In this document: positions 4,007 through 40,695 of the stretch, in pieces
Layout: the number at the start of each line of letters is the position of its first letter
How positions within the stretch are numbered: the first letter of the stretch is position 1
Assembly (NCBI GenBank): GCA_964016885.1
Contig: OZ024742.1
Coordinates: 281,480,001-281,544,000 of the forward strand
Source of the DNA: Eledone cirrhosa
Taxonomy: Eukaryota
Direction: 5' to 3'
Length of the DNA: 64,000 nt
Notes under the pieces: model-generated
Told to the model about the DNA's origin: nothing
The model's input: the letters and a program-made list of their open reading frames with translations, nothing else
Databases searched by the model: none
Made by a program: the position numbers and the translations under genes

Positions 4007-4261
4007 CTTGCTGGTTCCTATATATATATATATATATATATAGGAACCAGTAGGACCCCGACGGCTGGGCTCAGGCCGTTTCGACGGCTAATTCTGGACT
4101 AAAATTAGTCCAGAATTAGCCGTCGAAACGGCTTGAGCTCAGCCGTCGGGGTCTTACTGGTTCCTATTACCCACTCTACTACCTCAAGTATTGAGTACTT
4201 TGGTGCGTTATGGTCCACCTGGTTCCTTACCACTTTTCCTTCGTTATATATATATATATAT

Positions 4262-4412
4262 ATATTGAGTACTCAGGTTCGTTAAGGTCCACCTGGTTCC
4301 TTACCACACTTCCTTCGTTATATATATATATAACGAAGGAAGTGTGCTAAGGAACCAGGTGGACCATAACGCACCAGAGTACTCAATACATTGGGTAGTA
4401 GAGTGGGTAATA
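4262..4412. mobile_element. Two family A 3' tails arranged tail-to-tail around a short (TA)n
   Basis: attgagtac...ccttcgtta (TA)n taacgaagg...gtactcaat...agagtgggtaata. Confidence 0.75.
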
Positions 4413-5189
4413 CGAAAATGTTCAAGACTGCCGTCGGGTCTTGATCATTTTCCTCTCTCTCTCTATATATATATATATATGAAAACAGGGAGAAAGAGAC
4501 GATTATTAGGAAGAAAAATATTTTTTTTTCCTTTTTTGTATCTCTTTCTCTTTTTTCTGGGTGAGAAAATGATGAAAACGAAATGTTTTACTTTGTGTGA
4601 AGTGTTAAGGTATTAGTTGATTTATTTATTATTTAACAATGGCATTTATTTATCTATTTATATATTTAATTATTGTCTATTACCGGTTTCAGCATTTTTA
4701 TGCATTATCTATACTTACGTCTGTAAGTATAGATTTAATATTTAATATTTTCTAGATCGATACAGACGGACTATATGTACTTGAATTAAGGTATTTCTAT
4801 CTGGCTAAAAAATTATTGTCATTTTGCAAAAAAAAACACATTAGTGTGGATCATATTTTTTTAAATTGTAATGTAATGCTCAGAAGTATTTTCTTAGAGA
4901 TTAATATTTGTAACTGACTACTAAACTGAAATATATATATATATATATATATATATATATATATATATATATATATATATATATATATATATATATATAT
5001 ATATATATATATATATATATATATAAAATTTCAGGTTATCAATAATGTAGTGGTGATAATATATCGTTACGTTAGAGATGAACAGCGTACGTGTAGGCTT
5101 GCTCAACGAGTATAAATTATATTCCGGAGAAAATGTAGAAAAGATGAATATAAAATGAAAGTGCTTTTTTTTTAAAGGAATTTATTAGG

Positions 5190-5306
5190 TATTGACATAT
5201 GTTTCTGTAACAGACGGAATACCTATGTATCGCTGCTTGCGTAATCATATAATGTTAGCAAGTATTCGATAGCAAATGTATAATCAGTTGTCACTTCTTC
5301 AGAGAT
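5190..5306 (-). ncRNA. Degenerate hammerhead ribozyme in a PLE-type 3' end (element ~5025-5450, minus strand)
   Basis: Reverse complement: CTGAAGA A-GTGACA...TGTTAC-A GAAAC ATAT GTC. Stem III ACATATGT is palindromic; stem I pairs poorly. Confidence 0.5.
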
Positions 5307-5734
5307 TTTGGATAAATTGGATAAAATCAGAAAAGTTGAAGTATTTATATTAGTAATAGAGGAAGAAGAGAGAGGATAGTATATGACAGATGGTAATTCA
5401 ATTTACTGCTAAACAAGTATATAAAGGGTTTCTAATGAGAATACCATGAGTTTATATATATATATATATATATATACATATATATACACATATATACCTG
5501 CTATTTTTATATAGTTTCTAATTCATGGAAAGGCAGCATGGGTGGTATATTGGTGTAATGGTCTCACATTGGCCCGGCAATCAACTGTACTCCCATAATC
5601 CTGTGGTAAGGAAAACTATAATCATATACAATTATCTATGTCTATAAACATGGATACACAAATGTAGAGACATACAGAGATATACACATACACACACATA
5701 CTTACAAACACACTCACAAACACACATACACACT

Positions 5735-5970
5735 TACACGGAGGATGGACGCTTGGCTGGCCATATTCTGCGGCTGCCCGGCGAACGACACTCGAAAACA
5801 GCGATGCACTAGATCCCCCCCCCCCCCCCCCCCTGGCGACGAACTTTCCGAAAGGACCGGATGGCAGCCCGCAACACTTGGCAGGACGCGAAAAAGCCGC
5901 CTCTGATCGTGACTGTTAGCGAACACCTACTGCTCGATGCGCCGAAAGGCGCGGAAAAACCTAAGACTAA
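5735..5970 (+). mobile_element. RTE-clade LINE 3' end, degenerate
   Basis: Frameshifted reading of (L)AGHILRLPGERHSKTAMH.....WRRTFRKD...TWQDAKKAASDRDC*R...ARCAERRGKT*, typical of an RTE C-terminus. Confidence 0.6.
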
Positions 5971-5999
5971 CATATATATATATGTGTCTGTGTGTGTGT

Positions 6000-37228: not shown

Positions 37229-37410
37229 TTGGCAGTATCGGTAGAGGGTTGGACGCCATGCTTTCCAGCATATTTACGTCCCTTTACGATCTGAGTTCAA
37301 ATCCCGCCGAGGTTGACTTTGCCTTTCATCCTTACGTGGTCGATAAAATAAAGTACCAGTAATGCACTGGGATAATTGCTGGCCTGGTGCCAAAAGTAGA
37401 AACAATTATT
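37229..37410 (+). mobile_element. Octopus-type SINE
   Basis: tggcagtatcggtagagggttggacgcc...gttcaaatcccgcc...gtagaaacaattatt. Confidence 0.88.
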
Positions 37411-37929
37411 ACTTCCATTTTATTAGATAACAGGTTGTGGTCCAACTGTAGACATGAGGCAGACGACCCATGCGCCTGTTTTTAGCTGTTGCAATTTCCA
37501 TTACAGCTTTCATTCTTACAATTGCTTTCGATGATGGTGTATCTCTTATGTTGCTCTAGGTGCTTCTGTTGTTGAGTTAGTTGATGTTATTATTGGTAAT
37601 GTCATTGTTGTTACTATGCTGTTGATGTTGTGGCTGTTATTGTGGTTGTTGTGATTGCTTTTGTTTCTTATGTTGTAATTTTTCTTCCTACTGTTGCAGT
37701 TGATGACATGGATATTTTGGTTGTTCTTATTACTGGTGTTGCCGTTGCCGTGGTTATTGTTCTTATTGGCGTTGATGCTAGTGATGGTGTTGGCATTGGT
37801 TTTTGTATTGGTATTGGTTTGGATTCACCGCCGCAATTATTGCTGCTGTTCTCAATAGGTAAACGATAAGTATTTCCTTTATACACCTTTATCTTGTTTC
37901 CTATTGTCATTGTAGTCACTTCCCACCTT

Positions 37930-38180
37930 TATCCACAATGTTCTTATCTATGATGAAACGAATATTTACTATCTCACCGAAGAAATATCTAAGTAACTAT
38001 ATATATTTCTCTACACAGGTGATACCTATACGTGCACATAAAGTAGCTCCAGCTTACTCCGGTCCGGTTATTATGAAATGAAGAGTAATGAAGAGATACT
38101 AAAAAGGTTTTAGGGCTAATATTTATTCATACCTAAAAGAAAATTGGGAAAGGTTTTTGATAACTGTTTATTTCTATGTT
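37930..38180 (+). pseudogene. Highly degenerate PLE RT fragment
   Basis: KVAPAYS... and YSYLKENWERF(L)DNC resemble TAPTYAN and NWKRYLDDC at 800-950. Confidence 0.4.
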
Positions 38181-38274
38181 ATAAATCACTAGATTATATA
38201 TATATATATATATATATATATATATATATATATATATATAGTGACGAAACATAAGTCAATTGCATGAACTCTTT

Positions 38275-38330
38275 ACTGCTATATATATTTCGATCATAGC
38301 CATTGAATGGCTATGACCGCATCAGGCAGT
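38275..38330 (-). ncRNA. Type I hammerhead with CUGAUGC core (A9 to C)
   Basis: Reverse complement: ACTGC CTGATGC GGTCATAGCCAT tca ATGGCTATGATC GAAAT ATAT ATA GCAGT; 12 bp stem II, 5 bp stem I. Confidence 0.7.
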
Positions 38331-40489
38331 TAGTCAGTTCTTAGATATGCCAGCTCTGTGTTTATGGTGTTGGTAGTATCAGAGCCTTGGGACATATGAG
38401 CTTGTTAGGAATAATTTAATGTTGTCAGCAGGAATAGTCTTAATTCTCATTGGTCAGTTTGTAGATACTAGTAGGTTTGGTATTTGACCTCAAAGAGGCA
38501 GGTGGTGTCGTAAAGTTCAAACCGTCAGGCAAGATGACAATAGTTCCATATGACTGATTTTCACAAAAAGCTTTCCTGGTCAGATATATATTCAATTGAG
38601 GTTAATAGTATGAAATTCGATACTACAGGTCATTTTTAAATTGATGAATTTATGTGGAGTGGTACTACTGAAAATGATGGTTAATGTAGAATACTAAAAA
38701 ATTCACAAATAAAATGAAAAGACTTATGTAGATTGACTTGCACATACACTCACACCCACCCCCACAGATACACATACAAATTGAGGAATTAGTGTGGGGT
38801 GGTGATACTGAAAATTATGGTTAGACTCAAATACTTAGAAAGTTTAGAAATTTTAGAAATAAAAAGACTTATGTTGGTTGACTTGTACATACGCTCAGAC
38901 ACACACACACACACATCTACACATCCAAATCCATACAGGTGTGTATATATATATATGTACGCACAAGTTCATATATATATATATACAACAGAGGCCCCCA
39001 AATCCAAGTATAAGCAGACATAAAACTAGGTGGGTGTTTTTTTAAAGAAAAGTAAAGTGGGTGTTTGGAAAAGTTATTGTTTAGACTAGACAAAAGTAGA
39101 GTGTGATATATATCTTCACAGCAATGGCTTGGGGGCTTTGGAGCTTAGGCGAATCCCTTAGTACAGACACACATATCCACCCACACTTTTATACTTCTGG
39201 ATGCGCGTGTATGTCTATATACACATATGCACTCACACAAGAGAGCATATACAAATATACTCTTAAGCATACACACGAACATTTTTCAAATGCTACCTGG
39301 GGTATTAGTATGTACATTCACGTAATCCCAGTATACACACACAATGCACGGTTGCGGGCACTCATTCATGCGTATAGGGTTAGTACCTTGGGATAATTGT
39401 TCTTCCTGTGTGGGCCACTCCCTGGGGGGGGGGGGGGTCCTCAGGTTCAATAACGTGGTTTTGTTGACTCCTAACCAGTAGAGGATCCGGTGGACAATCC
39501 ACCGTAGGGACCACAAACTATGTGTGGTTGTTGTTGTCCATTGGTCATTGGTACGAGGTGTCGGGTACTTACGGGGGTGAGGGGCGTTGTGGGAGGCCTT
39601 AACCGGGGTTTATCCATATAGCTTGAGGAAAGTTCCCGTCCTTAGGTGTCTCCAGGCGCCAAATAAGTCGGCCCTTCTGTTTAATAACTTGGTACCGCCA
39701 TGACGTATATATATATATAAAGAGAGAGAGAGAGAGAGAGAGAGAGAGAGAGAGAGAGAGAGAGAGAGAGAGAGAGAGAGAGAGAGAGAGAGAGAGAGAA
39801 ATTTGATAGATGTTACTGCTAATGAAATTATTATATTTTATATCAGTAAAGCTGGCTGTATGTTTTAATGGTGACTTTAGGACTTTGGTTAACCAAATAA
39901 ATTTGTCAGTCAATATGATTAATAAGTTTACGTATTAATCAATGTTTAGATATATGTACTTCTGCTCCTAACATTACATTTTAGTAGAGCTGATTCATTT
40001 TACATCAAACACACTGCCATTTCTAGCATTCGTGTTGGCCTGTCTGTATCTGCATATTATTAGTACGTTCCTCACCATGTGCGTTCAGATCTTATTTCAA
40101 TCTATGGTGACTGGTAGTCTATAATGAGTTTAGTAATATTAATTTCTACTGATAATTGAGTGTTTCATTTTATGGTTCATTCCATTTCCCATGTACTAAT
40201 AAAATACATGAAACAGCTGTATATAAATATTGGAATTTCAGAATTTTACCATCTATGTAAGTTATTTAACTGTGTATCCGATTTTACTTTCGTAATGTAT
40301 TTATGTATATATTATATATGTATATATATATATATATATATATATATATATATATATATATATATATATATATATATATATATATATATATATATATATA
40401 TATATGTATATATATATATATATATATATATATATATATATATATATATATATATATATATATATATATATATATATATATATATATAT

Positions 40490-40695
40490 AGGTACGGTTA
40501 TTTCGGGTTGAATCGGAGGTAACCAAAGTAAGTAAGGTACAGAATACATTGCAGAGTATAAAAGTTTTAATATAGATGAGATTCTACAGGACTAGAACTG
40601 TTTCATTCTTTAGAAATCATCAGGAATCTGATTCCTGATGATTTCTAAAGAATGAAACAGTTCTAGTCCTGTAGAATCTCATCTATATTAAAACT
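40490..40695 (-). mobile_element. Palindromic hammerhead element (arms 40563-40628 and 40630-40695) with tail 40490-40562, in (TA)n
   Basis: Perfect 66 bp inverted arms around T40629; tail homologous to 31357-31425. Confidence 0.88.
40630..40678 (+). ncRNA. Canonical-core type I hammerhead (mirror copy on minus strand at 40580-40628)
   Basis: GATTC CTGATGA T-TTC taaa GAA-T GAAACAG ttctagtc CTGTA GAATC; predicted cut after A40673. Confidence 0.82.

Follow-up and report, generated by a model that had tools for sequence, protein, structure and literature searches.

Penelope-like elements (PLEs) of the Hydra clade encode a C-terminal GIY-YIG endonuclease with CxxC and CxH motifs, carry a 3´ hammerhead, target (TA)n and leave an inverted, 5´-truncated copy with a tail on one end (Craig et al., 2021, PMC8557442). 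How tandem and inverted PLE insertions with such a one-sided tail arise is named as an open problem in that paper. For the Anolis Poseidon element PAc, the passages of Frangieh et al. (2024, PMC11167929) drawn on here tie the tail to two internal reverse transcriptase (RT) start sites that bound it in vitro, and report that both target strands are cut and extended, that RNA downstream of the starts is required, that the target is AT-rich and that a dimer is predicted.

The Hydra-clade features recur in the 64-kb stretch of Eledone cirrhosa DNA analysed here (the window), where mirrored insertions end a few nucleotides before a hairpin. An earlier sequence-only reading had taken these ends for a footprint of PLE integration, and this was supported in part: the elements are Penelope-like, and the fixed end, read as such a footprint, tracks the hairpin. 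Hairpin-positioned dual priming of Hydra-clade PLE insertion is the best explanation and, in our judgement, a rather probable one.

Hydra-clade elements in the window

The window insertions are Hydra-clade Penelope-like retroelements and short derivatives of them, an assignment based on a C-terminal GIY-YIG remnant, a hammerhead and the (TA)n target:

18244..18657, plus strand: 5´-truncated C-terminal GIY-YIG endonuclease of Hydra type (CxxC..E, N-x8-CxH), family B, by translation and ORF comparison
19654..19720, plus strand: type I hammerhead of family B, canonical core and palindromic stem III, by motif with stem I pairing
3913..4006, plus strand: hammerhead-like motif of family A, U3-A8 core variant, read by eye

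The family B endonuclease matches residues 600-724 (the end) of the intact 733-aa ORF of a relative, L038 (49%, E 5e-27). The window copy is truncated within the linker and has no RT, both CxxC and CxH are present around the conserved E and N, and the internal CCHH is absent as judged by eye. Pfam gave no GIY-YIG match for this endonuclease and left six relatives likewise unnamed, and for this reason the GIY-YIG name rests on PMC8557442 and on the characteristic motifs. Among 28 relatives of at least 640 aa, CxCX5C, DK[TS] and YRDD are present in all 28, and an RWK-like motif in 20.

Family B has (TA)n on both flanks and about 1 kb from stop codon to hammerhead; the hammerhead is predicted to cut after 19714 and is mirrored at 17081 on the minus strand. 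Rfam gave no hammerhead among the matches listed (150 of 252) and, on the palindromes, sub-threshold miRNA-like matches only. In the family A motif GAAG replaces GAAA, and folding recovered stems I and III but not stem II; the U3-A8 hammerhead variant has been described (PMC4209133). Families A and E and the short copies had no protein match at their window coordinates. Their shared hairpin, hammerhead-like motif and target suggest that they too belong with the Hydra-clade PLEs, and families A and E may be non-coding derivatives resembling non-LTR retrozymes. Naiad identity was rejected, given the C-terminal endonuclease and the hammerheads. A scan of viral contigs returned 25 pattern matches with no relative among them.

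Fixed ends and a twin hairpin

The mirrored arms, hairpins and tails of the window are as follows:

16976..18190, minus strand: tail-less inverted arm of family B that mirrors 18501-19760 and joins (TA)n at its outer end (alignment; 1212 aligned nt, 5 mismatches and indels, a 43-nt duplication confined to one arm of the pair)
18188..18309, no strand: short fold-back at the 5´ end of the family B sense copy (self-alignment), overlapping the long arm by TAT (3 nt) at 18188-18190
19761..19845, plus strand: family B tail, about 85 nt, confined to this arm
19765..19792, plus strand: family B bulged hairpin, 4 nt past the tail-less end
2217..2758, minus strand: long inverted arm of family A that mirrors 3623-4167 with 2 mismatches in 539 aligned nt and encloses a nested (TA)n and a small palindrome
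2759..4021, plus strand: family A sense body, with its tail-less end at the same base as the family's other tail-less ends; no protein match
4040..4244, plus strand: family A, comprising a small mirror at 4040-4167, a hairpin at 4173-4199 and a tail of 77 nt at 4168-4244
1755..1897, plus strand: family A small mirror, hairpin at 1826, gap 5
4333..4455, minus strand: family A variant, hairpin at 4404, gap 9; tail-less arm end 4455 within (CT)n, repeat overlap 0
21612..21799, plus strand: family A mirror, hairpin at 21728, gap 5
61982..62175, plus strand: family A mirror, hairpin at 62104, gap 5
5998..6120, no strand: relative of family A in which neither arm has a tail (gaps 2 and 5), an exception to the one-tail pattern
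1509..1671, plus strand: 13-nt mirror, hairpin 1591-1614 and tail, gap 3
20376..20559, plus strand: 15-nt mirror, long-loop hairpin 20425-20487 and tail, gap 7
40491..40695, minus strand: mirror 40564-40694, decayed hairpin at 40557, gap 5; the hairpin is intact in a relative at 31416 (minus strand)
9512..9764, plus strand: family E mirror, gap 5 to a deviant ACTC hairpin at 9709
63717..63988, minus strand: family E mirror with the same end, gap 5 to the ACTC at 63772
45341..46030, plus strand: older mirror, gap 3 to a decayed hairpin at 45956; repeated at 54017 in a duplicated block

A near-identical 7-kb duplicate in the window adjoins an N gap.

The seven mirrors listed earlier, with arms put at about 10 bp to more than 1.2 kb, proved real. 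All stop 3-7 nt short of the hairpin, the earlier coordinates were off by at most 1, and arm lengths measured 13 nt to 1212 aligned nt. The last mirrored bases (with the gap to ACTC) are 1587 (3 nt), 4167 (5), 19760 (4), 20417 (7 by exact walk, 3 by gapped alignment), 21722 (5), 62098 (5) and 40563 (5; ACTC begins at 40557 on the minus strand). With nine further ends at gaps of 2-9 nt, 16 of 16 scored window ends lie 2-9 nt before a hairpin, 10 of them at 5. As a control, a mirrored 10-mer ending at most 10 nt away and abutting a microsatellite was found for 9 of the 369 ACTC tetramers in the window, 8 of these being the mirror element ends, and 67 of 3000 random positions passed; the strict control misses two true cases (19765, 4404) with a substitution near the end. 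The claim that the mirror always stops at the hairpin goes too far, given 5998-6120 with its two tail-less arms, several tailed copies without an inverted arm (4265, 6299, 31416, 41246, 43239) and three other tailed mirrors without an ACTC hairpin (46979, 63002, 63489-63700).

The survey covered the window, reads on one family and loci of relatives. Where the reference was 90% or more identical over 40 nt or more, 21 of 23 ends at relatives' loci lie 2-8 nt before the hairpin. In a hand-picked set combining window and relatives, 42 of 45 ends lie 0-9 nt before it (window, 16 of 16; before hairpin 1, 13 of 14; before hairpin 2, 13 of 15), and the other three, with diverged references or mutations, scored 12-13 nt in the exact walk. 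For this set 13 of 41 relatives' locus rows were dropped (poorer duplicates, read-through of the own hairpin, references below 90%, one ORF match and one non-Hydra hairpin), as were five window rows paired with a spurious hairpin at 48944, and one locus end and six window ends were added, partly by eye. An unbiased edge scan, used for exact endpoints alone, found a mirror at 62 of 264 TA edges, mostly microsatellite self-matches.

The hairpin has the consensus RCTC-stem-loop-TH-GAGY-RCT and shows covariation in 85 sequences whose hosts include sponge and coral-like ones. In end-anchored columns of these 85 hairpins the first upper pair is paired in 84 (48 C-G, 34 T-A), the first three upper pairs are Watson-Crick in 205 of 255 cases against 91.5 +/- 7.2 in shuffles, and the bulge begins with T in all 85, with the covariation and endpoint counts inflated by related sequences. 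The ACTC/GAGT of the window is a compensatory form of GCTC/GAGC. A MAFFT alignment of 61 hairpins was set aside since short hairpins were mis-registered. In relatives the hairpin occurs twice, 55-83 nt apart, upstream of the start codon; scripted detection found such a pair at 13 of 25 loci with long ORFs, and correcting three start codons raised the count to 16. Tail-less ends stop directly before hairpin 1 and tailed ends directly before hairpin 2, the latter half coming from relatives rather than window families; thus a single rule accounts for both ends, and the two hairpins lie one tail length apart. The earlier idea that the hairpin positions a second event therefore needs widening: the end does track the hairpin, but the rule is not special to the second end, as the relatives' tailed ends obey it too.

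By eye, the hairpin can be seen in the supplementary consensuses of PMC8557442 near the 3´ end of Hydra-2_Amil and Hydra-2_Ajap, in variant form in Hydra-1_Crog and as two copies ahead of the ATG in Hydra-1_Ajap; the main text of that paper contains neither 'hairpin' nor 'stem-loop'. We did not find the covarying twin hairpin and its endpoint rule in print.

We infer a role for the hairpin at the RNA level in positioning the enzyme. Thermodynamically it is a weak structure (z = -0.55 to -1.98), and when two window hairpins were folded with their flanks, a different pairing had the minimum energy in both, so that folding did not single out the hairpin. G-U type pairs and A-C mismatches are equally frequent (10 each) and so favour neither RNA nor DNA folding. 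A rival reading is a DNA-level hairpin: the GIY-YIG endonuclease would bind it in a cDNA or rolling-circle intermediate and nick the TA patch 5´ of it, the ends being cut sites and not starts. Craig et al. ascribe the tail to endonuclease-mediated resolution, the D. virilis endonuclease needed the tail to cut according to the relevant passage of PMC11167929, and positions 5-8 nt upstream of the hairpins have an A/T content of 86-91%, resembling the enzyme's target. Against this, in the sole PLE tested in vitro the tail ends are RT start sites on RNA (same source, passages on PAc), and TA is lacking at the junction of some ends (4455, L012, L046, L094). We consider the DNA-level hairpin unlikely.

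The fixed endpoint had also been described as a TA or TAT patch merging with (TA)n. This describes most window ends, with 3-4 nt of overlap, but a single nucleotide overlaps at 40563 and none at 4455 (window range, 0-4 nt). Among 32 ends flanked by a microsatellite, overlap with the repeat is 1 nt or more in 27, 2 nt or more in 24 and nil in five, so that annealing to the TA target, as had been proposed, appears weak and optional.

Tails, joints and the proposed mechanism

The tail is one-sided in 13 hairpin-type window pairs and in L006, L053, L085 (two pairs) and L089, and either arm may be the tail-less one (L006). Exceptions are 5998-6120, the 1145/4990 pair of L085, and L081, in which both arms are tailed. 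This one-sided extension is the known PLE tail (PMC3846280, PMC8557442), at lengths (77 nt in family A, about 85 nt in family B, with 55-83 nt hairpin spacing in relatives) outside the 30-40 bp described for it. A MITE or foldback DNA transposon was rejected: the terminal inverted repeats do not reach both ends, one of which has the unmatched tail, and arm length is not constant (about 25 to 540 nt in family A).

In raw reads of three samples, the commonest family has its main junction with TA at base 4167. A loose end there running into (AT)n ranked first in all three runs (3473, 3030 and 3038 reads), and in contigs it led the 'behind' rows (104). Of 637 loose-end rows 24 were listed, and of 22 strand-change joints 15; in 8 of the 15 joints listed the arms share no sequence, as in the non-overlapping head-to-head joint 4113-4185 (32, 44 and 111 raw reads). 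We favour two separate cDNAs over one fold-back from these non-overlapping arms, although such joints could instead stem from later loss of a palindrome centre. Of the proposed second priming or strand joining, second priming is the best reading, and a fold-back is often absent; similarly, the end is fixed as claimed, but the supposed variable fold-back centre often joins two separately truncated copies.

A single cDNA that folds back and copies itself until the hairpin stops it would resemble the self-priming argued for in passages of PMC3846280. The perfect small mirrors at 21615-21719 and 40564-40694 and the real 43-nt fold-back at 18188-18309 fit such copying. It does not fit the joints without shared sequence or the pairs in which neither arm (5998-6120) or each arm (L081) is tailed, and it leaves the stop of tailed ends before a hairpin unexplained; we regard it as very improbable. 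Sequencing or assembly chimeras are less plausible still, to the point of being negligible: the fixed end and strand-change joints are present in raw reads of all three samples, arms differ by substitutions and indels, and the same layout occurs in unrelated public contigs. In their favour, some arms are 100% identical, the 7-kb duplicate is near-identical and adjoins an N gap, and the raw-read support covers the fixed end and joints, not the long mirrors themselves.

If the hairpin instead marked RNA cutting or termination, ordinary end-primed copying of two true RNA 3´ ends would give the same endpoints, and Anolis RNA-seq read ends also map to the start sites (PMC11167929, passages on PAc). 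A cut before hairpin 1, however, would strip the only conserved motif from the template, and RNA added beyond the Anolis starts left them in place (same passages). We think this quite improbable.

Under dual priming, the repeat unit would run site 1, hairpin 1, site 2, hairpin 2, ATG, RT-EN ORF, 3´ UTR, hammerhead and the next site 1. Transcription may pass the element end into the next unit's leader, from a multimer or circle; tandem loci are seen. The protein, probably a dimer, would bind the bulged hairpins in RNA, and the endonuclease would cut both strands of (TA)n, the target seen here, as known from another PLE clade. Each freed DNA end could then prime RT about 5-7 nt 5´ of a hairpin, the position observed, with a few nucleotides of A/T pairing perhaps settling the exact start base. 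Usually one end would start at site 2 and give the tailed arm and the other at site 1 and give the tail-less arm, matching the pattern seen, and sometimes both would use the same site, as also seen. Two cDNAs of variable length would be joined head to head with little or no overlap, at times with a short fold-back, as in the copies seen, so that each arm would have one fixed end, the centre would vary and tail length would equal hairpin spacing.

More tentatively, and falling a little short of what we would call probable, the duplicated RNA hairpin may be a ruler for a dimeric reverse transcriptase, with one hairpin per subunit, a start about 5-7 nt upstream and one cut strand each. If true, the ruler rule would account for the tail and how long it is, for the head-to-head inversion and for where tandem units meet, and would define a template-positioning RNA element in the retroelements closest to telomerase. 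The 20-30 nt motif predicts both insertion ends within a few bases and is testable by mutation; it could also help to delimit Hydra-clade families during curation and to identify non-coding derivatives, family A for example. Were the hairpin to position RT starting inside RNA without homology, this would be relevant to RT-based insertion tools.

Comparison with known systems

Published Hydra-clade tails are 30-40 bp long whereas those of the window and relatives are 55-85 nt, and the window families differ further in having ACTC/GAGT instead of GCTC/GAGC and, in family B, about 1 kb between stop codon and hammerhead. PAc belongs to another clade; the passages of PMC11167929 place its starts inside an AC-rich stem loop within the ORF, with no homology needed, and neither describe a repeated motif nor address an inverted copy. 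By eye, the hairpin motif is absent from the Anolis element. The Penelope of Adineta vaga is similar in its head-to-head inverted pLTRs, junction palindromes and 31-bp tail on one pLTR, and differs in being explained by self-priming on an antisense template, with no positioning motif in the relevant passages of PMC3846280.

The window insertions resemble L1 twin priming in working but are another system. In L1 the second primer reportedly anneals by homology at variable internal sites and the arms rarely overlap, with a poly(A) tail and an APE endonuclease. Here both starts are fixed, arm overlap reaches more than 1 kb, there is no poly(A), and the enzyme is of GIY-YIG type. Shared are two primings from two target ends that give an inverted, truncated insertion, as described for L1 (PMC2837659).

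Among the tandem repeats listed, no retrozyme-type array with a hammerhead per unit was found at the coordinates of these copies. Non-LTR retrozymes (PMC7229834; bioRxiv 10.64898/2026.07.22.740005) are likewise non-coding, hammerhead-bearing and thought to be PLE-mobilised, but they form head-to-tail arrays of 170-400 nt units, in contrast to the head-to-head pairs in (TA)n of the window.

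Mirror ends and the ACTC hairpin in the window

Self-comparison of the window, which is AT-rich, animal-like DNA packed with (TA)n, recovered long mirrors. The sequence-only reading had proposed that the inverted copy always stops 0-8 nt before the ACTC hairpin (a bulged ACTC/GAGT stem-loop, here called the hairpin). For all seven mirror ends it had listed, an exact walk showed the mirrored sequence to end 3-7 nt before ACTC, agreeing with its end coordinates to within one base. Nine additional ends in the window showed gaps of 2-9 nt, and the gap was 5 nt at 7/7 TA-flanked ends of family A (A, B and E are our labels for families of Penelope-like elements, PLEs). 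The association between mirror ends and the hairpin is not due to chance. A mirrored 10-mer abutting a microsatellite was found for 9 of the 369 ACTC tetramers in the window, with 8 of these 9 being element ends; 67 of 3000 random positions passed the mirrored 10-mer control.

"Always" did not survive, however. Both arms at 5998-6120 lack a tail (the extension on one of the two inverted arms), several tailed copies lack an arm, and three mirrors within (TA)n, whose tails are about 43-70 nt long, possibly represent other PLE clades bearing signals of their own:

46979-47214, tailed mirror without the ACTC hairpin
63002-63178, tailed mirror without the ACTC hairpin
63489-63700, tailed mirror without the ACTC hairpin

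The outer (tailed) end of family A also is fixed, in six copies, and no copy extends beyond this end to reveal a second hairpin in the window's own families. An older 3´ end at 43613-43790 (and 52288-52460) has a hairpin of GCTC type at about 43702, along with half a hammerhead; a convincing inverted arm is absent there, the mirror being just 8 nt long and 12 nt before the hairpin.

Raw RAD-seq reads from three samples of one study (three runs), together with one contig set, were aligned to 4105-4244 in family A, giving 22872, 23635 and 26422 aligned reads and 16177 aligned contigs. The organism sampled is likely the window's species; it contains roughly half of the sequence words of a different stretch of the window. 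In every raw run the most populated row was a loose end at 4167 leading into (AT)n (3473, 3030 and 3038, counted as reads, not loci); in the contig set this end ranked first among "behind" rows (104) and second among all rows. The remaining "behind" rows among the best 24 of 637 loose-end rows showed element-like continuation leading either to that same end or to the outer one. In 8 of the 15 strand-change joints listed (22 in total), an arm down to 4105-4117 meets a sense copy starting at 4173-4206, and thus the arms have no common sequence, though 3 of these 8 lie at most 3 nt from the reference edge and are less certain. Five others fall at 4161-4164, where alignment is blurred by subfamily variation, and the last two are one tail-to-tail joint and one between two tailed arms. 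Perfect palindromes probably sequence poorly, so this mix of joints is likely biased. We give almost no credence to the mirrors being an artefact. Several strand-change joints start at 4185-4206, and solo tails at 4265-4318 and 41246-41314 likewise start within the hairpin 3´ strand, immediately after (TA)n; copying that began at the outer site may often have stalled on reaching hairpin 1.

Identity of the elements and their surroundings

The long mirror contains a truncated endonuclease (18244-18657) that has 3926 relatives with E values of 0.001 or less and aligns with the C-terminus of intact ORFs. A canonical hammerhead is present at 19654-19720. Families A and E gave no protein matches, and we infer their clade membership. 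Other features of the window are as follows:

400-954, minus strand, degraded RT-like fragment with a match to Hydra-type proteins (E 3.5e-8)
12971-13885, short element carrying 112-nt inverted ends and a coding remnant that, from its translation, we take to be Tc1/mariner-like
50298-51635, open frame of 445 aa presumably resembling the C-terminal part of LINE ORF2, with related pieces near 8797, 28441 and 60991
43362-50397 and 52037-59080, near-identical 7-kb direct duplicate flanking a gap of 200 N (51837-52036); an assembly or haplotype duplication is probable
10869-11722, 14589-15054, 23776, 29462, 37228, 40931, 46259 and 60134, abundant repeat of ~200 nt, SINE-like by eye and partly tandem

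Each of the 28 retrieved ORFs that are 640 aa or longer contains DK[TS], YRDD, CxCX5C, CxxC..E and N-x8-CxH, which PMC8557442 gives as Hydra-clade features. By eye, families A and E have hammerhead-like motifs, partly supported by folding, with a U3-A8 core of the kind described in PLEs (PMC4209133). The textbook PLE arrangement, as in PMC8557442 and PMC3846280, is a truncated copy in inverted orientation and a tail at one end. In PMC11167929 the tail is linked with a pair of internal RT start sites, and both strands are cut and extended; because the tail is already tied to these sites, the fixed end is the known PLE tail boundary.

A doubled hairpin in related elements

Relatives were found at 79 metagenome and 17 genome-bin loci, presumably host DNA, and the records include sponge-, coral- and clam-associated ones by title or context. 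The 17 bin loci (L080-L096) are animal-type retroelements within bacterial genome bins, one (L087) in a 491-kb contig; most look like host contamination. Among 52 scorable 3´ ends, 34 reach the hairpin, 10 meet a microsatellite first and 8 do neither, and the motif was counted 133 times compared to 29.6 in shuffles. Across 85 distinct hairpins (78 from loci, 7 from the window), 205/255 upper-stem pairs, which lie outside the finder's selection, are Watson-Crick, compared to 91.5 ± 7.2 after shuffling (maximum 117 in 2000 shuffles), figures that are inflated by relatedness. This covariation is confined to the register that leaves a 2-nt bulge, which starts with T in 85/85; two lower pairs are imposed by the finder. 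At the closing pair, 72 hairpins have G-C, 7 (the window's) have A-T, 5 have A-C and 1 has G-A.

Full-length elements have two hairpins, 55-83 nt apart, directly before the ATG. Such leaders were found by script in 13 of 25 long-ORF loci and in 16 after start-codon correction, with most others showing the second copy only. A published sea-cucumber consensus (PMC8557442, supplement) starts at hairpin 1, ends in ATAT and has the doubled hairpin by eye. The family B hairpin (19765-19792) and hairpin 2 of L038 (437-464), on an unrelated contig, share an identical 17-nt inner stem and loop within a 31-nt, 90% match in which the closing pair shows a compensatory change; this suggests that the loop is conserved or has been exchanged between the two hairpin positions. 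At L056, L038, L085 and L086, different Hydra-type families adjoin or sit inside each other's TA flanks; at L056 the ORF of a second element immediately follows the two hairpins.

In the loci, 21 of 23 ends lie 2-8 nt before a hairpin (references at least 90% identical over at least 40 nt), in a search whose range was narrow because it required an alignment no more than 60 nt upstream; the other two are L005 (12 by exact walk, 3 by BLAST) and a match to a non-Hydra hairpin. A wider reference covering both hairpins recovered the same ends. In a picked set of 45, tail-less ends precede hairpin 1 (16/16 in the window; 13/14 in loci, within 9 nt) and tailed ends precede hairpin 2 (13/15). The sequence-only rule, that the inverted copy stops before the hairpin, is half of a larger one. 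Within a single family, L003, L006, L085 and L086 end 3 nt before hairpin 1, L002 and L090 end 4 nt before hairpin 2, and L004 and L005 continue past both to the ATG. The tailed arm is the short inverted one in L006, and L081 has a tail on both arms. For 32 microsatellite-flanked ends, allowing repeat overlap, gaps of 5 and of 6 are each covered in 25.

Proposed mechanism and comparison with known elements

We observed the target, both fixed ends, the hairpin distances, variable centres and non-overlapping arms, as well as a 3-nt overlap and a short fold-back at 18188-18309. The reading we favour, with moderate confidence, is that protein would bind the hairpins of a read-through RNA, each cut target strand would prime a short way upstream of one hairpin, and head-to-head joining of the two cDNAs would follow; we infer the RNA-level binding, the dimeric state of the protein and the order of events. 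Hairpin folding is weak, however, with competing folds, and wobble counts do not separate RNA from DNA folding. Endonuclease cutting next to a DNA hairpin, the main rival, appears unlikely. RNA end formation at the hairpin seems more doubtful still. Family A arms traverse the predicted hammerhead cut site and therefore the template was uncut or rejoined, in agreement with PMC11167929. We assign very low probability to single-strand fold-back as the explanation. The arm at 2217-2758 includes a copied nested TA run and a small palindrome, which fits a composite locus re-mobilised from its last hairpin.

In the literature covered, which mostly excluded subscription papers and Repbase notes, we found no description of a conserved hairpin that is present twice and tied to both ends, and the hairpin could be visible in the supplementary figures of the 2021 (PMC8557442) and 2024 (PMC11167929) papers. 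The larger rule tying both ends to the doubled hairpin apparently is undescribed, and it opens the mechanism of PLE integration to direct testing. The feature is real and a member of a known element class, for which the Hydra clade, the inversion, the tail and, in another clade, the two start sites are already known.
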